In this document: piece after piece, positions 1 through 56,596 of the stretch | How the letters are laid out: every line of letters begins with the position of its first letter | How positions within the stretch are numbered: the stretch's first letter is position 1 | Source: Candidatus Vogelbacteria bacterium RIFOXYD1_FULL_44_32 | Lineage (GTDB): Bacteria; Patescibacteriota; Minisyncoccia; Phycocordibacterales; XYD1-FULL-46-19 | Assembly (NCBI GenBank): GCA_001823065.1 | Contig: MHTJ01000003.1 | Coordinates: forward strand, 181,460-245,459 | Length of the DNA stretch: 64,000 nucleotides | Direction: 5' to 3' | The notes under the pieces: generated by a model | What the model was told of the DNA's origin: nothing | The model's database searches: none | Seen by the model: only the letters and a program-made list of their open reading frames with translations | Translations under genes and position numbers: made by a program

Positions 1-419
1 TGGCAGGTGCAGTGGGGTTGGCTTTGGCTTTGACTATCTGTCAGACCACGGCGACTAATGAGAATAAACGATTGTCGGCCCTAAGAGATTTATTTATTAG
101 ACAAGCCCAGCGCGATTTACCGGGTATTATTTTCCACGGGACCTTGGTTGACCGTTTGCCTAATAATATCAATTTTACTTTGCCGGGGGTGGAGGCCGAG
201 TGGGTGGTGTTGTGGCTCGACAGTCAAAATATTGAAGCGTCCACGGGGAGTGCTTGTGCCAACAACTTTGCCAATGACAATCATATCTTAACCGCTTTAT
301 ATGGGGTGAAAGCGCCTAGCGAGGGTTCGGTCCGGTTATCTTTCGGCCGAGAAACTACCACTAAAGATATTATTAAAATCATTGCGGTTTTGAAAGAAAT
401 ACCTAGATCTAACGTGTAA
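1..419 (+). CDS. Cysteine desulfurase (class V aminotransferase), C-terminal fragment running in from the upstream window edge
   Basis: The translation ...STGSACANNFANDNHILTALYGV...EGSVRLSFGRETTTKDIIKI matches the conserved C-terminus of IscS/NifS (SSGSAC...SIRFSLGRFTTEEEI). The reading frame is open to the window start. Confidence 0.7.
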   Translation, partial: AGAVGLALALTICQTTATNENKRLSALRDLFIRQAQRDLPGIIFHGTLVDRLPNNINFTLPGVEAEWVVLWLDSQNIEASTGSACANNFANDNHILTALYGVKAPSEGSVRLSFGRETTTKDIIKIIAVLKEIPRSNV

Positions 420-441
420 TATAATAGGGAACTTGGGCGCG

Positions 442-450
442 TGCTATAAT
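442..450 (+). promoter_or_regulatory. Extended -10 promoter element (TGcTATAAT) upstream of the SOD gene
   Basis: TATAAT at 445-450 is preceded by TG at 442-443, about 28 nt before the ATG at 478. No clear -35. Confidence 0.35.
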
Positions 451-477
451 GGGACAAATTATTAGTTCTAACCTCAA

Positions 478-1101
478 TTGGCTATGCACAAATTACCACC
501 ATTGCCTTATGATTATTCGGATTTGTCTCCTTATATAGATGAAGAGACAATGCGTTTACATCATGACAAACATCACCAAGCTTATATTGATAAGCTAAAC
601 GGGGCGCTGGAAAAATATCCAGACTGGGCCGAAAAGGCCGTGGCGGATCTGCTTGGTGATTTAGAGGCTGTACCAGCTGAAATTAAAATGGCGGTGCGTA
701 ACCATGGGGGCGGGCATTTTAATCATTCCTTTTTCTGGGAGATAATGCGCCCCGGCCGAACTGACAATGTCCCGGAGGGTGAGCTTTTATTTAAGCTAAA
801 CGAAGTTTTCGGTGATTTACTTTCCTTTAAGGAAAAATTTACCACGGCGGCCTTGGGGCAGTTTGGCTCGGGTTGGGTCTGGTTGGTCCAAAATGGGCAA
901 GGTGAGCTGGCCATCAGCACGACCGCCAATCAGGACTCTCCACTGGAACTAGGGCAGAAGCCCATTATTGGGTGTGATGTCTGGGAGCATGCCTATTATT
1001 TGAAATACCAAAATCGGCGGGCTGAGTATGTCGATAATTTTTTTGCGGTTATAAATTGGAGTGTGGCCGATGCCAATTTTAAACATGCGAAACTGGGGTA
1101 A
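478..1101 (+). CDS. Fe/Mn superoxide dismutase
   Basis: Contains HHDKHHQAYIDKLN, the metal ligands and the DVWEHAYYLKYQNRRAEYV signature. 207 aa is typical. Confidence 0.9.
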   Translation: MAMHKLPPLPYDYSDLSPYIDEETMRLHHDKHHQAYIDKLNGALEKYPDWAEKAVADLLGDLEAVPAEIKMAVRNHGGGHFNHSFFWEIMRPGRTDNVPEGELLFKLNEVFGDLLSFKEKFTTAALGQFGSGWVWLVQNGQGELAISTTANQDSPLELGQKPIIGCDVWEHAYYLKYQNRRAEYVDNFFAVINWSVADANFKHAKLG

Positions 1102-6220: not shown

Positions 6221-7186
6221 CTATTGTGACAAAAACTTCCGCACCAACGGATAGGATTGTTCTGGTTCAGTAATCCACCTGATACGATTGTCGCGTTTGA
6301 ACCAGCTCATTTGCCGTTTGGCATATTGGCGGATAGCCTGCTCGAGTTCCGCGAGCATGGTGTCTTTAGAAAATCTGCCATCTAAATATTGGCTGATATA
6401 GCGATATTCGAGGCCAAGCGCTTCTAATCGGGCGGAAGTAATACCAGCATCCTTTAAATTTTTGACTTCCTCAATTAGCCCCACTTTGACCCGCGCGAGA
6501 AGTCGATTGTGAATTTTTTTGAATAATTCGGGTTGGGGCACATAAATACCGATTTGGAGTAGGTCGTAAGGAGAGTTTATTTCTAGTGGTGGGACTTTAC
6601 CGAGGGCTTTGGCGATCTCAATTGCTCTAATCAAGCGGGGGCGGTTTTGGTCATCAATATTACTGGCGCGGTCGGGGTCAATCGTGCGCAAAAGTTCGAC
6701 TAGATCGATAGTGGGGTAGGTGTCTAGCTCTAAACGCAGAGTTTCGTCGGGGGGGACTTCAGGGAGTTTTAAATCATCAACCACTGCCTGAATATAAAAA
6801 CCAGTGCCACCAGCGAGGATGGGCAATTTGCCTTGTTCACTGATATTACCGATAGCTGAGGTCGCCAAACTCTTGAAATCAGCCACCGTAAAAGTATCGG
6901 CTAGGTCGGCCACATCTAACAGGTGATGCATTACCCCACGCATTTCGTCTTCGGTGACTTTGCCGGCGCCGATATCGAGCCCACGATAAACCTGGCGCGA
7001 ATCGGCCGAAATAACTTCACCTGCAAATTCCACCGCCAAGTCAACGGCGAGGGCCGATTTACCCGAGGCCGTGGGGCCAAGGATGACTAGAAGTTTATCT
7101 TTTTTATTATTAGTAGAATCCACGCTAATACGATATACGAAAAACCAGCGCGTCGCCAGCCTGCCTCCGAATTGTTCGGTTGACAA
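6221..7186 (-). CDS. miaA: tRNA dimethylallyltransferase MiaA
   Basis: LLVILGPTASGKSALAVDLA P-loop, ISADSRQVYRGLDIGAGKVT and the overall MiaA architecture. The true start is probably internal to the listed ORF, since the N-terminal 25 aa look non-native. Confidence 0.9.
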   Translation of the reverse strand: MSTEQFGGRLATRWFFVYRISVDSTNNKKDKLLVILGPTASGKSALAVDLAVEFAGEVISADSRQVYRGLDIGAGKVTEDEMRGVMHHLLDVADLADTFTVADFKSLATSAIGNISEQGKLPILAGGTGFYIQAVVDDLKLPEVPPDETLRLELDTYPTIDLVELLRTIDPDRASNIDDQNRPRLIRAIEIAKALGKVPPLEINSPYDLLQIGIYVPQPELFKKIHNRLLARVKVGLIEEVKNLKDAGITSARLEALGLEYRYISQYLDGRFSKDTMLAELEQAIRQYAKRQMSWFKRDNRIRWITEPEQSYPLVRKFLSQ

Positions 7187-7224
7187 GCTGGCGACGCACT
7201 GGTTGAAAGGGAAAGACTAGCTCT

Positions 7225-7530
7225 CTAATACCCCAAGACGGCCCGGCATTCAATATCTGAAATCTCCGGCCAGAAGTGGATTAAAAAAGTCTGCTGGTAA
7301 CAGGTAGTGTGCAGAACATATTTGGCCACTACATGGCCGTCATCCTCGATGAAGGTCTGGAGGTTGTCGCGCCAAATCTTTCTGGCACTCGAATAGGGCT
7401 TTCTGCGCCGGGGTTCAGGGACCACTTCACCTATTTGGACACTTTCCACTTTGTCCAAACTGGCTATGTACCGGACTTTTTTCCTAAACATCCGGTATAC
7501 TTTGGCATTTTGTCTCGTTGCGGTGGCCAT
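7225..7530 (-). CDS. Hypothetical basic protein (101 aa) with a strong RBS
   Basis: AAGGAGGG lies 6 nt upstream of the ATG. Intact ORF between tRNA-Leu and miaA. No family recognised. Confidence 0.5.
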   Translation of the reverse strand: MATATRQNAKVYRMFRKKVRYIASLDKVESVQIGEVVPEPRRRKPYSSARKIWRDNLQTFIEDDGHVVAKYVLHTTCYQQTFLIHFWPEISDIECRAVLGY

Positions 7531-27746: not shown

Positions 27747-28661
27747 ATGAAAGTTATTGTTGAATCAGCGGGTGGGCATACTCACCCAATCCCAAAAGGG
27801 ACAGATGAACTAATCAAGGCCCTACTCATCGAGTGTGGGTTTGCCGAGACATCGGAATGGATTGTGGTTCACGGCCCCGTGGTCAAAGGTAAGGCATCAA
27901 TGCCAGCCATCAAGGTCCTAGATCTGGACAGTGGACATAGTTCGATTCGTCTGCGGACCAAACCAGGCAACAACACCACCGCTCGGATTTGCTATCTTCG
28001 TCCACCTACAGGGTCAGGTATTTTACTGGAGGATTTGTATGACAAAATCAAGGGTAGGAATGGTTTTGTTTTGCCGCCATTAGTTACTTCGGCTGTGAAG
28101 AACCGCAGTAATTTGGTGACAAAGGAATCAAGCCAAGCCAACTCCGCTGAGCTGGCTAAGTTTTTGAGTAACCAGGTTTGTCTTCACGGGTTGCTTTCTA
28201 CTTTGTGGCCCGACGGCTACCTTGAAGATAAACTCCAAGTCGATGAGATCCGTAGTGCTATCGGCATTGCCTCCGGTCTGGAGCTTTCGTGGGCCCAACT
28301 GGTACAAGCAAGTAAGAAGCTCATTGACTTAGACTTTATAGCCAAGGTGCCAAAGTCAGGAGGAAAGGAGGTTCGGCTTGGTGTGGTGGGCAAAAAGTTG
28401 CTAGACGGCGCCGGCGAGATACAAAAGATAGTCAAGGTCGAACCCAGACCGGTTGTTTTGGCAAGCCCAGATCCATCTCCTGCTAAAGAGGATGCCAAAG
28501 TGGATCTGACGGCCGAACAAATGATGCTGGTCGAAATAAGTGGGCTGGAAAAAAAGCTTTCCCTGATTGAGGCCGAGAAAGAGGCCCTAGAGGAGAAGGC
28601 CAGGCCTGATCGCGAGCGACTCGAAAAGCTTCAGCGTGCTCTGGCGGTGCTTCGAGGTTAA
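27747..28661 (+). CDS. Hypothetical protein with C-terminal coiled coil, GC-rich
   Basis: AGGAG RBS. 304 aa. No family recognised. Confidence 0.5.
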   Translation: MKVIVESAGGHTHPIPKGTDELIKALLIECGFAETSEWIVVHGPVVKGKASMPAIKVLDLDSGHSSIRLRTKPGNNTTARICYLRPPTGSGILLEDLYDKIKGRNGFVLPPLVTSAVKNRSNLVTKESSQANSAELAKFLSNQVCLHGLLSTLWPDGYLEDKLQVDEIRSAIGIASGLELSWAQLVQASKKLIDLDFIAKVPKSGGKEVRLGVVGKKLLDGAGEIQKIVKVEPRPVVLASPDPSPAKEDAKVDLTAEQMMLVEISGLEKKLSLIEAEKEALEEKARPDRERLEKLQRALAVLRG

Positions 28662-28737
28662 TTATAACCGTGTAGGTCCCTTTGGGGTCTACGCGGTATT
28701 TTTGTGGCTAAACAAAATTTAAAAGTCGGTGTAGAAT

Positions 28738-28890
28738 AAACCAGTCCGCCCGTCTATCCTCGAGGCAGAGCCTCGGCGTATTGAGCGGACGGCAACAGGG
28801 CTGGTTTTTTGGAAGAGGAAGCGGCTCCGCCACTTCGTTTGTTAGTGCCTTACATTCCCGCCGCAAGCGGACCGGGTATTACGGCACACC
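28738..28890 (+). repeat. Intergenic hairpin/repeat element, copy A (shares ends and an internal motif with copy B at 55956-56030)
   Basis: AAACCAGTCCGCCCGTC...GGACGG...GGGCTGGTTTTTTGGAA, plus downstream CCGCAAGCGGACCGGGTATTACGG. Copy B reads AAACCAGTCTGTCCGTC...CGCCAGCGGACGGGGTATTACGCGGACAGC...GGGGCTGGTTTTTTGGAA. Confidence 0.55.
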
Positions 28891-28899
28891 AATAAAGAA

Positions 28900-29262
28900 A
28901 TGAAAAAAAATTTTAATGAAAAAATAGTTGGTCTTAGTATTCCAGATAGTGATATAAAAGGTTGGATGCAGGAATTACGGCAGTCTAAATTGACCCAAGC
29001 AGAAATTGATGATTTTCTGGCAAATTTAAATTTAACCTATGCGAACAAGCTTATGACTAGGGCCACTAAAGTAGAAAATGAGTTAAAAGGTTCGGTTGAA
29101 TATTTAGAGGATAAATATGGCCATCAAATTACTCCCGAAGCTGAGGATTGTTTAAGACAAATGATTGATAAAATGCTTTCCGATCATGAAAATAAAATAA
29201 ATATCGACAGGGGTGAAGAACTAAAACTCGAAGATGGTGATTATGAGCACGAACGGGGTTAA
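28900..29262 (+). CDS. Hypothetical protein (120 aa)
   Basis: Intact AT-rich ORF. Confidence 0.4.
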   Translation: MKKNFNEKIVGLSIPDSDIKGWMQELRQSKLTQAEIDDFLANLNLTYANKLMTRATKVENELKGSVEYLEDKYGHQITPEAEDCLRQMIDKMLSDHENKINIDRGEELKLEDGDYEHERG

Positions 29263-42896: not shown

Positions 42897-43592
42897 ATGG
42901 AAAATCAAACCCGTGACCAGAAGTTCGCACATCTTTTCGAGTTGTGTGAGAAACTGAAGAAGCAGGTGATTTATGGTAGGAATATTGACGAGGTTATTGG
43001 TGATCTGCAAACCACCATTGATAATCCTCAAGCTTCAACGACATCGCGTTGGCGCATCGCTGAGGATGGCCTCATTCACTTCTCACTCACTTCCACTGGC
43101 GAAACCGGCGCACAGTGGGCCGACTGGTTTACGGTTAACAAGTTTGCAGTTGGTAGCGAGTTTGGGTCTAGATACATACTCCGCTCAGCTTCTTTCAAAC
43201 CGAGCCAGGTCGGAACGGTCTACAAGATTGCTGTTCTACCCGGTAATCTCTTTGAGAAAAAGAGAGACTGGACTAGTATCTCAAATGTTCGCGCTGAGGC
43301 CGATCGTCAGGGTTTAAAGCATGGGGAGGAGATGAATGCTGAAATCGCTTGTCTCCTTCGGCGGGAGTTTGCCAATAAAGAGCTTGAGGCCATGGGACTG
43401 TTTTGGGTTGTGTGTCTACATGAACCCATCGCCGACGGCCATGGGTTTCTGAGCTTGCTCGGTCCTGGTTGTTATTCGGGCGGTCGCTGGTTTTCCGCGT
43501 TCCGTTGCGGGCCAGATGACGTTTTTCCCACCAAATATCACTTTGCCACCTTGGTCTCTGTAATATCACCTCCGATGGTAGAGCAGACCTGA
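42897..43592 (+). CDS. Hypothetical protein (231 aa), GC-rich, between uvrB and uvrA
   Basis: Intact ORF. The overlapping minus-strand ORF (43273..43695) is Arg-rich junk. Confidence 0.5.
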   Translation: MENQTRDQKFAHLFELCEKLKKQVIYGRNIDEVIGDLQTTIDNPQASTTSRWRIAEDGLIHFSLTSTGETGAQWADWFTVNKFAVGSEFGSRYILRSASFKPSQVGTVYKIAVLPGNLFEKKRDWTSISNVRAEADRQGLKHGEEMNAEIACLLRREFANKELEAMGLFWVVCLHEPIADGHGFLSLLGPGCYSGGRWFSAFRCGPDDVFPTKYHFATLVSVISPPMVEQT

Positions 43593-47978: not shown

Positions 47979-48071
47979 TCTTGGTGTCGGGCGGGCTTCC
48001 CCGCCTTCGCTAAAGCTGCGGCGGGGATTACGCTAAAGACAAGTTGGGCTAATAACGATATAATTTAGTCA

Positions 48072-49565: not shown

Positions 49566-49670
49566 TTAGTCTATTATTGGAGTTGCCAAGAATACACCGA
49601 CGGTTCACCGCGGTGATGAATTGGCGAGAATGAAATAGCCATTGGCGGAGCCAATTTTTTAACCAAAAAA

Positions 49671-49746
49671 GTTTGCCCCGCTGCCTCGCCCCAATCCCCG
49701 CGGCAAAGCCGACGGGGATTGGGGCGAGGACAAACTTTATTGTTTA
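49671..49746 (+). terminator. Very long GC hairpin with T-run between the histidine kinase and receiver genes
   Basis: GTTTG...CCTCGCCCCAATCCCCG-CGGCaaaGCCGa-CGGGGATTGGGGCGAGG-aCAAAC followed by TTTATTGTTT. There is a 17-bp perfect core. A separate hairpin GCCATTGGC-gga-GCCAAT plus TTTTTT lies at 49638-49660. Confidence 0.6.
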
Positions 49747-52362: not shown

Positions 52363-52438
52363 TGGTGGACCCTATCGGATTCGAACCGATGACCTCCTCA
52401 TTGCAAATGAGGCGCTCTACCAACTAAGCTAAGGGCCC
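52363..52438 (-). tRNA. tRNA-Ala (anticodon UGC), CCA encoded
   Basis: The reverse complement reads GGGCCCTTAGCTTAGTTGGTAGAGCGCCTCATTTGCAATGAGGAGGTCATCGGTTCGAATCCGATAGGGTCCACCA. Confidence 0.85.
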
Positions 52439-52478
52439 AATTTAATTATAAACCTTTATAATACATCATTTTTAATAC

Positions 52479-52618
52479 CTGGCGCCTCATTTGGCAAATG
52501 AGTGTCACAAGTATTTTTCTGCTGAAAAATCTCGCGACCCCACCTCGCGCCGTCGCGCTCCGGTCTTGCACTTGGGTCCCACCCCAAGCTCACTCTACCA
52601 ACTAAGCTAAGGGCCCAA
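52479..52618 (-). pseudogene. tRNA-derived fragment/pseudo-tRNA upstream of tRNA-Ala(UGC)
   Basis: 52593-52618 is an exact 26-nt copy of the tRNA 5' end (acceptor plus D-arm), followed by an anticodon-arm-like hairpin TTGGG-GTGGGAC-CCCAA. There is no T-arm or 3' acceptor. The internal helix GATTTTTC/GAAAAATAC resembles the E1/E2 core helix. Confidence 0.4.
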
Positions 52619-52683
52619 CTTTTAACCTACACATATTAGCAATCTCGTATTGAAAAATCAATCCTGTTTGGTAGAATTGGGAT

Positions 52684-54992: not shown

Positions 54993-55955
54993 ATGAAAAA
55001 TATAATTTCTGTTAAAAATCTCGGTAAGGATTTTAAAATTAGACAAAACAAAAATGTTATTACCGGCCTCTGGCGACCAGATTTTCGCATCGTTTCAGCC
55101 GTGGCGGATATTTCCTTTAGTGTAAATGGGGGTGAGAGTTTAGCTATCTTGGGCCCAAATGGGGCTGGCAAAACTACCACTATTAAAGCTTTAACTGGAC
55201 TTATTTATCCCACGCGGGGCGAGGTAAGTGTACTGGGTTTTTTACCCTTTGATCGTAACCCGGAATTTTTACAACAAATTGGACTGCTGATGGGCAATAA
55301 GGCTGGTCTAAATTGGGACCTGACTGCTAACCAAAGTTTTTATTTATTACGCGAAATATATCACCTCGAGCCAGCCAGCTGTGAAGCTAGGGTAAATGAG
55401 TTGGCTGAATTGATGTCGGTCAAACATGTTTTAGATGTGCCAGTGCGAAAACTATCACTAGGGGAGAGGATGAAATTAGAATTGATCGGGGCAATTATTC
55501 ACAGCCCACGCATCCTTTTCTTAGATGAACCAACAATTGGCCTAGACATTGTGGCCAAGAAAAAAATTCGTCACTTCCTGCGGGAAATACAGGCTCGTTA
55601 TAAGGTGACAATAATTTTAACCAGTCACGATATGGCCGATGTGGAAAAGGTTTGTGACCGGGTTATTGTTATAAATAAAGGTAATAAAATATATGATGGC
55701 TTGGTGGAGCAACTAGTCGACGACCACAATGAGGAAAAAATGGTTAAATTTTATTTTGAAACCACACCGACTATTTTGCCAGAAATATTGCAGGCGGAAC
55801 TTATTACCACAAGTGATGATGGGGTAGTATTTAAGGTAAAAACCAATCAAATGCCCCAACTCATATCACAAATAACTACCGCCTGGCCAGTTTTAGATAT
55901 TGATATATATGCCACTCCACTAGAGGATATCATCGAAAGCTTGTTCAGAAAATAA
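54993..55955 (+). CDS. ABC transporter ATP-binding protein
   Basis: Walker A GPNGAGKTTT. Signature LSLGERMKL. Walker [14 protein letters not shown]-loop TSHDM. Confidence 0.88.
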   Translation: MKNIISVKNLGKDFKIRQNKNVITGLWRPDFRIVSAVADISFSVNGGESLAILGPNGAGKTTTIKALTGLIYPTRGEVSVLGFLPFDRNPEFLQQIGLLMGNKAGLNWDLTANQSFYLLREIYHLEPASCEARVNELAELMSVKHVLDVPVRKLSLGERMKLELIGAIIHSPRILFLDEPTIGLDIVAKKKIRHFLREIQARYKVTIILTSHDMADVEKVCDRVIVINKGNKIYDGLVEQLVDDHNEEKMVKFYFETTPTILPEILQAELITTSDDGVVFKVKTNQMPQLISQITTAWPVLDIDIYATPLEDIIESLFRK

Positions 55956-56030
55956 ACCAGTCTGTCCGTCGATTCCTCGCCGCCAGCGGACGGGGTATTA
56001 CGCGGACAGCATCGGGGCTGGTTTTTTGGA
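55956..56030. repeat. Intergenic hairpin/repeat element, copy B (convergent-gene terminator region)
   Basis: See copy A at 28738. Ends AAACCAGTC.../...GGGGCTGGTTTTTTGGAA. It contains GCGGACGGGGTATTACGCGG. Confidence 0.55.
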
Positions 56031-56038
56031 ATAGGCTT

Positions 56039-56596
56039 TTACTTGTCTAATAATTTCAGCCTAGGTTTGTATAATTCCCTTAATCTCTTTAAACCGCGAT
56101 GCATTTGCACGGCGATGGCATTTTTGGATTGGCCGGTAAGTAGTGATATCTCGGCAAGGGATAAATCTTGGACATAACGCATGCGAATAACCTTTTGATA
56201 AGTTTTTGGCAAATGATTGATTAATACTACCGCCGCTTTGCCGTCTAAAATATTAAATAACTTCTCCGAGTCCTCACCACCTGGTTCAAATCCCTTGTCT
56301 AATAAGTCGTCCAGAGAGCTGGTTTTATGTTTGCGATATTCGTCAACAATTAGGTTATTTAGCACATGGTATAAAAAGGCCTTCATCATATCAATCTTAC
56401 CCTCGCGGACAAAGTAAGCCCATGTTTTGAGAAAGGTGTCTTGCACCAGCTCCTCGCTGATTTGCCGGTTGTGAACCTTGAAATAGGCATAATTATTTAG
56501 ACCTCTCCCAAAATCCTTATGAGCGGTAGTTAGTAAGGCACTTAGGCGATTATTTTCTTGAGGAGTCATATAGATATGGCCGAGTGAGGGCATCAA
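56039..56596 (-). CDS. ECF-type RNA polymerase sigma factor
   Basis: Region 2 LVQDTFLKTWAYF...DEYRKHK. Region 4 HTH LSLAEISLLTGQSKNAIAVQMHRGLKRLREL. Confidence 0.8.
   Translation of the reverse strand: MMPSLGHIYMTPQENNRLSALLTTAHKDFGRGLNNYAYFKVHNRQISEELVQDTFLKTWAYFVREGKIDMMKAFLYHVLNNLIVDEYRKHKTSSLDDLLDKGFEPGGEDSEKLFNILDGKAAVVLINHLPKTYQKVIRMRYVQDLSLAEISLLTGQSKNAIAVQMHRGLKRLRELYKPRLKLLDK

Follow-up and report, generated by a model that had tools for sequence, protein, structure and literature searches.

A structured intergenic element of about 160 nucleotides, dispersed in Vogelbacteria and other Patescibacteria, with features of a gene-less IS200/IS605-type mobile element

A discrete, structured, and dispersed DNA unit, whose occurrence at individual sites varies among relatives, was found in the genome of Candidatus Vogelbacteria bacterium RIFOXYD1_FULL_44_32 (Parcubacteria/CPR, Rifle aquifer). 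The element comprises about 160 nt and six helices, organized as two similar hairpin modules on one strand, and its structure is conserved with covariation. The 64 kb of DNA analyzed here (referred to as the window) contain three copies in both orientations, A, B, and D, which were detected with covariance models (Table 1). R1 represents the left half of the element, R2 the whole composite, and R3 the right half. With moderate confidence, we interpret the element as a non-autonomous, PATE-like mobile element of the IS200/IS605 type, which inserts 3′ of AATAA and carries a built-in terminator.

Table 1. Copies of the element and a further hairpin in the window (positions counted from the first nucleotide of the window)
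Feature	Position	Strand	Support
Copy A, full composite including AATAA on both sides	28735..28896	+	R2 150.5 bits, E 4e-38
Copy A, left half: P1, P2, internal loop, P3, bulge CAACAGG, U6 (28805-28810)	28738..28810	+	fold; R1 91 bits
Copy A, middle: purine-rich GGAAGAGGAAG, then small hairpin P4	28811..28841	+	alignments A4, A6
Copy A, right half (the GGGTATTACG site of the first-pass annotation)	28842..28896	+	R3 63.5 bits, E 3e-16
Site C, GC-rich hairpin after uvrC ending in GGGGATTACG	47990..48035	+	not a family member
Copy D, full, diverged, between histidine kinase and response regulator genes	49573..49741	-	R2 113.7 bits
Copy B, deletion derivative	55951..56054	+	R2 73.5 bits; R1 90 bits

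Both modules follow the same plan, in which an outer stem leads via an internal loop (5′ xAU, 3′ UAUU) to an inner hairpin whose 5′ strand is rich in C and whose 3′ strand is rich in G. AU-CCCC...GGGG-UAUU is common to both, and the modules detect each other: R3 matches the left module at 15–27 bits, and R1 matches the right module. The left module sits within an extra outer stem, which is followed by five to six uridines, and the left AATAA is located approximately 18 nt ahead of the foot of the inner hairpin. The right module reads GUGCC-CUCUUAU-CCCC[hairpin]GGGG-UAUUnC-GGCAC and is followed by CCAAUAA. A purine run (GGAAGAGG) and the small hairpin P4 with GGCUCCGCC lie between the modules. 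The latter motif, a 5-nt loop CUCCG with two closing pairs on each side, is unchanged in 12 of the 13 full copies. Together with the CAnCRGG bulge, the U5–6 tract, and the terminal CCAAUAA, it belongs to the nearly invariant motifs of the element, which are unpaired or partly paired. In copy A, P1 is formed by AAACCAGU/GCUGGUUU and P2 by CCGCCCGU/GCGGACGG, and the right half consists of P2b (GUGCC/GGCAC), an internal loop, hairpin P3b, and the terminal CCAAUAA. A subfamily with an extra GC-rich hairpin (GCCUGCC...GGCAGGC) directly after the U-tract was observed in the loci L005 (4293–4335) and L016 (minus strand, about 465–505).

Two intergenic regions of the window had been described as sharing identical ends in a first-pass annotation, and these regions correspond to copies A and B. 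The segments 28738–28812 and 55954–56028 begin with AATAAACCAGTC and end with GGGCTGGTTTTTTGGAA, and a 17-mer searched with up to three mismatches matched these two sites of the window only. The long hairpins proposed for both sites were confirmed by folding (−33.0 and −33.5 kcal/mol, z about −3). The internal CCGTC/GACGG partners, also listed in that annotation, form the second helix P2, in which copy A (CCGCCCG/CGGACGG) and copy B (CUGUCCG/CGGACAG) differ by a compensatory change from C-G to U-A; the inner hairpin P3 differs between these copies as well. The motif at 28874, which had been taken for a separate site, is part of the right half of the element whose left hairpin is located at 28738, because conservation runs approximately 85 nt past the U-tract in homologous loci. 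Copy D on the minus strand was first detected by the covariance model of the left half, and its right half reaches 44.9 bits with R3. Copy B consists of a left half (55951–56027, U6 at 56022–56027) followed by GGAAUAGG and the terminal CUAAUAAU; it has kept the left half and the terminal CTAATAAT and lost P4 together with the right half. The AATAA at its left edge (55951–55955) is the Lys-stop end of an ABC ATPase gene. The identity among the window copies is only 58–71%, and they are therefore old. Copy B and L006, which has a different gene context, are 94% identical.

The sharing of a motif by three sites of the window, also stated in the first-pass annotation, is correct at the level of the 10-mer GGGKATTACG. 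It occurs exactly three times, in all cases intergenic and on the plus strand, versus 0.22 expected occurrences. With one mismatch allowed, nine matches were found versus 7.5 expected, that is, the motif is not enriched. The third of these sites, at 48018 (site C), shares the 10-mer but does not belong to the family: R2 returned only negative scores for it with filters off, and R3, run over the whole window with filters off, did not list it at E ≤ 10. The GC-rich hairpin of site C is located in the 93-nt spacer between uvrC and the histidine kinase gene (47979–48071); the same spacer comprises 34 nt in Vogelbacteria RIFOXYD1_FULL_46_19 (L075). A long, nearly perfect hairpin (AACCAGUGCGUCGCCAGC...GCUGGCGACGCGCUGGUUUUU) was also seen at 7127–7208 on the minus strand, after the minus-strand ORF 7225–7530. 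Its outer AACCAG/CUGGUU matches P1, and it has no other feature of the family (R1 21 bits, E 0.017).

The alignment A6 with 15 sequences displayed compensatory changes in 28 out of 43 base pairs, covering all six helices and reached by none of 500 shuffles, and 90% of its cells were paired (76.7% in shuffles, 38–48% with slid partners), these counts being derived from an alignment fitted to the model. In an unfitted MAFFT alignment of the left half, compensatory changes were found in five of the eight pairs of P2. Three of the six pairs of P4 covary, and the eight pairs of P1 are paired to 99%. Copy D shows covariation of P1 (AAAGUUUGUC/GGCAAACUUU). The folded strand was assigned on the basis of conserved G-U pairs and far lower scores of the reverse strand. 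A DNA-uptake sequence was considered and rejected, since P1 covaries in copy D and L059 and its sequence is thus not a fixed uptake signal.

The boundaries of the element are sharp and follow the pattern (A)ATAA/...CCAATAA/ in 13 copies (slashes mark the boundaries). On the left, the information content climbs from noise to 2 bits at (A)ATAA, and on the right, it drops back to noise behind CCAATAA. All 13 copies examined have an unchanged ATAA directly 5′ of the element, mostly as AATAA, which is often the Lys-stop end of a gene. AATAA is already present at the empty site in the two comparisons of filled and empty sites described below. The pentamer is found on both sides, on the right always after a conserved CC, and the left and right pentamers differ in L005, L059, and L016, which makes a right motif encoded by the element somewhat more probable than a target duplication of 4–5 bp. 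The termini are not inverted repeats: in the 13 copies, the left ACCAGTC... is unrelated to the reverse complement of the right end (TTATTGGTGTGCC).

Filled and empty sites were compared for copy D (spacer between the histidine kinase and response regulator genes, HK–RR) and copy B (end of the ABC ATPase gene). The gene order uvrA-uvrC-HK-RR-ddl is kept in relatives. In four of them, the HK–RR spacer comprises 28–56 nt (L075/L076, L077, L078, L079/L080), compared with 192 nt in the window, where the spacer accommodates copy D. The junction reads ...TATTAAT... in relatives and ...GTC/TATTATTGG[element]CTTTATT/GTTTAAT in the window, and the empty sites bear an AATAA-like sequence at the junction. 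Orthologues of the ABC ATPase gene (79–95% identity) end with ...AAATAA/TTGACAG or ...AAATAG/ and are not followed by the element; in the window, the gene ends with ...AAAATAA/ACCAGTC. No copies were detected in about 164 kb of syntenic relatives. Deletion derivatives that retain both termini are represented by copy B and L016:183–302. The uvrB locus was also considered as an empty site, since the element follows the uvrB orthologue in L023/L032 and is missing after uvrB in the window, but it was discarded because the downstream genes differ. In Vogelbacteria 46_19, uvrB is followed by a gene for an IS1595-type transposase (L075 3013–3876), and in the window by an orphan ORF of 231 amino acids (42897–43592) with no Pfam match. 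This region looks like a local hotspot of gene turnover.

Outside the window, 13 further copies from Vogelbacteria, Kaiserbacteria, and other Patescibacteria were identified in metagenomes and genomes. When metagenomes were scanned for the shared ends, 56 loci were obtained, of which about 14 were clearly homologous, and R2 assigned 89–181 bits to copies elsewhere, with E-values down to 1e-46. The hosts include two Vogelbacteria genomes, a Kaiserbacteria genome (in which P1 covaries, too), a Patescibacteria MAG labelled Saccharibacteria, and several metagenome contigs with a GC content of 34–50%; one contig of 355 kb carries several copies (L006, L008, and L055). A strict pattern independent of P1 gave three true copies among 16 matches in genome contigs and was too strict for deriving copy numbers per genome. 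Viral contigs contained zero copies in two pattern scans and with R2, and hence no link to phages is seen. Rfam 15 at the gathering threshold returned only tRNAs for the whole window, and its permissive mode returned nothing relevant for copies A and B. In the searchable literature, no description of a Patescibacteria repeat or structured RNA of this kind was found.

In most cases, the element follows closely on a co-directional gene, precedes a convergent one, or does both. Its neighbors elsewhere are unrelated housekeeping genes (rpsP, lysS/mraZ, ndk, smpB, purH, and a pilB-like gene). The upstream stop codon lies in or beside the AATAA in copy B, L063, and L068. Copy D is oriented antisense to both the histidine kinase and the response regulator gene. 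The unrelated neighbors and the antisense orientation of copy D do not support a role as a leader or riboswitch. Copy A ends 3 nt ahead of a start codon. The 304-amino-acid gene upstream of it possesses its own intrinsic terminator according to a terminator scan (28667..28697, plus strand; a stem of 14 pairs followed by ATTTTTGTGG), so that copy A is not needed to end this gene. The 304-amino-acid ORF itself (27747–28661, plus strand) has no Pfam match; no relatives were found in genome contigs, and a search among 5.8 billion proteins retrieved only the protein itself. The ORFs of 120 and 121 amino acids downstream of copy A have no Pfam match either. A sigma70-like sequence, TAAACA-17-TAGAAT (28709–28737, plus strand), extends precisely up to the left edge of copy A. 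If copy A is removed, it lies approximately 7 nt before the ATG of ORF 28900–29262, which resembles a leaderless arrangement. Because of this placement, the insertion of copy A may have parted the ORF from its promoter. A general promoter role of the A-rich left flank was rejected, since the hexamers are not consistently −10-like.

The properties described so far resemble those of PATEs, which are gene-less pairs of IS200/IS605 ends, and mobilization of such end pairs in trans is known (bioRxiv 10.1101/2023.03.14.532601). Like PATEs, the element is short, non-coding, and dispersed, and it lacks terminal inverted repeats. Two similar imperfect hairpins are located near the ends on one strand, the insertion occurs directly 3′ of a short, invariable sequence, in this case AATAA, which the right end of the element itself resembles, and bases at the hairpin feet are complementary to the target sequence. 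Insertion of IS200/IS605 elements takes place 3′ of a tetra- or pentanucleotide that is specific to the element and recognized via a guide beside the hairpin foot (PMC5027513). The bases beside both inner hairpins of the element (5′ UAU, 3′ UAUU) are complementary to AAUA(A). The element would accordingly move as single-stranded DNA via the "peel and paste" route of IS200/IS605; it would have lost its transposase gene and be mobilized in trans. In this scheme, the two inner hairpins would serve as palindromes bound by the transposase, and the AU-rich bases at their feet (UAU, UAUU) would act as guides by pairing with the AAUA(A) of the left flank and that of the right end. In contrast to PATEs, the hairpins are nested in additional outer stems, giving six helices in total, and a conserved middle hairpin with the invariant GGCUCCGCC is present. 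A further difference concerns the partner genes: Y1 transposase and TnpB families had no match among the 30 window ORFs scanned, and two ends parted by a gene were not seen in about 0.5 Mb of related loci. As no transposase partner was found, we infer the mechanism of transposition from these resemblances. The orientation of the copies may be another difference. In 10 of 16 copies, many of them on short loci, the local GC skew of the element strand is positive, and no clear lagging-strand bias was seen.

The left end might additionally act in RNA. P1 is followed by U5–6 in 15 of 15 copies, and with a calculated folding energy of −33 kcal/mol this corresponds to the predicted layout of an intrinsic terminator. 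A simple terminator scan does not call P1 and U6, because the enclosed "loop" comprises 55 nt of structure. The left-end hairpin and the U-tract, mirrored by the A-rich 5′ flank, would form an intrinsic and probably bidirectional terminator, which would insulate the insertion site like the left end of IS200. The left end of IS200 contains a bidirectional rho-independent terminator that blocks incoming transcription and is followed by a second hairpin (PMC4513863). A hairpin at the extreme left end that may function as a terminator, followed by a second hairpin, would thus be shared with IS200 of Salmonella and other Enterobacteriaceae. The likeness is one of layout, and no sequence similarity was seen. 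The IS200 terminator is a simple palindrome of 23 nt (nt 12–34; PMC4513863), whereas the element has a rod of 75 nt with three helices, and IS200 carries tnpA, unlike the element.

The transposon model offers no explanation for the outer stems P1, P2, and P2b, for the invariant GGCUCCGCC, or for the CAnCRGG bulge, and the fact that diverged copies each keep the fold in place also fits an RNA function at the level of the host. The copies could accordingly be structured ncRNA genes or RNA modules of 3′ untranslated regions with a host function, for example, a protein-binding RNA with two modules or a stabilizer of mRNA 3′ ends combined with a terminator, which spread by duplication or recombination. 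The strong covariation, the invariant P4 motif, the bulge, the UAUU loops, and the presence of the U-tract in every copy argue for this explanation. The same holds for the retention of every helix at 58–71% identity within one genome, which suggests selection at each locus, for the canonical terminators after the whole composite in L055 and L016, as if the full length of approximately 160 nt were transcribed, and for the sigma70-like promoter ending exactly where copy A begins. Promoter-like hexamers upstream are not conserved, however, and an ncRNA gene would not be expected to have sharp boundaries with AATAA at either end, precise empty sites in relatives, deletion derivatives with both termini, a patchy presence among syntenic relatives, and an antisense insertion within an HK–RR gene pair. 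We therefore consider it unlikely. A repeat of the REP/BIME type was considered as well, in which an extragenic palindrome unit is mobilized by a single-copy REP-associated tyrosine transposase (RAYT) and domesticated by the host as a terminator, mRNA stabilizer, or protein-binding site. REP units are palindromes of 20–40 nt with a conserved tetranucleotide head that often occur as inverted pairs, and RAYTs share their enzyme class (HUH/Y1) with the IS200/IS605 transposase. Both enzymes have been treated together (PMC6006769). With the REP/BIME systems of E. coli and Pseudomonas, the element shares the position outside genes, for the most part at their 3′ ends or between convergent ones, the hairpins in multiple diverged copies and both orientations, and a possible role in termination or mRNA stability. 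The "REP-like terminator family" of the first-pass annotation was correct in this respect: the repeat is structured and extragenic, contains a terminator-like hairpin, and is dispersed well beyond the two copies. The unit, however, comprises approximately 160 nt and six helices instead of about 75 nt, it lacks a GTAG-like head, its two modules are direct and not inverted, and it behaves as a discrete insertion at a fixed AATAA junction, which is more typical of IS200/IS605. A RAYT gene was not seen in the tiny share of the genome covered. An origin as a REP/BIME repeat thus appears decidedly unlikely.

The first-pass annotation had also suggested a small cis-regulatory RNA and a geometry of alternative terminator and antiterminator structures. 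Such a reading would correspond to a riboswitch-like or attenuator leader controlling the downstream gene. The stem enclosing the left module runs straight into the U-tract, copy A lies directly ahead of a start codon, and the 5′ strand of P2 in copy B can indeed pair with either of two downstream segments, because the 3′ strand of the inner hairpin (GCGGACGG) resembles that of P2 (GCGGACAG). This alternative pairing is not conserved, though. It is confined to copies with a P3 of the GCGGACGG type, is absent from copies with other P3 sequences (A, L005, and L018), and would leave the outer stem P1 next to the U-tract closed. Moreover, the downstream genes are unrelated and often convergent or absent, the copies usually follow genes, several of them beginning in or right after the upstream stop codon, copy D is antisense to both neighbors, and no Rfam family matched, all of which makes a leader very improbable. 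The last alternative is a coincidental likeness of two GC-rich terminators, for which it could be argued that just two window copies have identical ends and that the 10-mer with one mismatch is not enriched. It would be consistent with only two copies and no covariation. It is refuted by at least 15 homologous copies, which come from several genomes and reach E-values as low as 1e-46, and by the covariation of all six helices; its probability is negligible. The interpretation as a PATE-like mobile element with a terminator is hence preferred.

Other known repeats share single properties with the element. Like the Correia elements of Neisseria and other MITEs (ERIC, RUP, and BOX), it is non-autonomous, falls into the range of about 100–200 nt, forms long RNA hairpins, and adjoins genes, and promoter or terminator activity may be associated with elements of this kind. 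In classical MITEs, the termini are inverted repeats and a target such as TA is duplicated. Assignment to this group was rejected, since the ends of the element are not inverted and the flanking pentamer does not vary with the site but reads AATAA almost throughout. The attC sites of integrons are likewise folded single-strand recombination sites right after stop codons with a structure more conserved than the sequence, unpaired bases, and a variable terminal hairpin. They were also rejected: R″/R′ boxes (RYYYAAC...GTTRRRY) were not found on either strand, the copies are single and dispersed and do not form cassette arrays, and no integrase is located nearby.

CPR genomes have a size of about 1 Mb with very short intergenic spacers and are usually thought to be poor in repetitive or mobile DNA. 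The element occupies entire intergenic regions, separates the two genes of a two-component system, and brings along a predicted terminator; it would be an unrecognized force acting on gene expression and synteny in CPR bacteria. The covariance model is readily applicable to the annotation of puzzling intergenic regions in Patescibacteria. A mechanism of the IS200/IS605 type, if true, implies that a transposase and possibly an RNA-guided nuclease await discovery in this clade; otherwise, the family represents a strongly covarying RNA missing from Rfam. More speculatively, and in our opinion doubtful, the element might be a previously undescribed, CPR-specific mobile structured module, either a portable terminator/insulator cassette, which the reduced and gene-dense genomes of these bacteria would tolerate or exploit, or a PATE and a functional RNA at the same time. 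In the latter version, it may serve as a guide-RNA scaffold for a transposon-encoded nuclease or as a protein-binding RNA with two sites. Either version, if true, would provide a reason for the invariance of GGCUCCGCC, for the CAnCRGG bulge, and for the two UAUU internal loops.

Further observations were made at individual loci. On the 1.5-kb contig L016, two copies are arranged tail to tail (183–302, plus strand; 369–561, minus strand) with an ordinary bidirectional terminator between them; the minus-strand copy is reduced and has neither the inner hairpin of the left half nor the internal loops. In L043 (14145–14535), the right half is interrupted, and a fragment of an integrase-core (rve-like) ORF enters from the contig end; another insertion sequence may have landed in this copy. 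In the window, a 29-nt stretch that covers the 5′ part of tRNA-Ala(UGC) occurs twice, at 52415–52443 and 52593–52621, the two being 178 nt apart and 97% identical; an integration at the tRNA gene could have left this scar.
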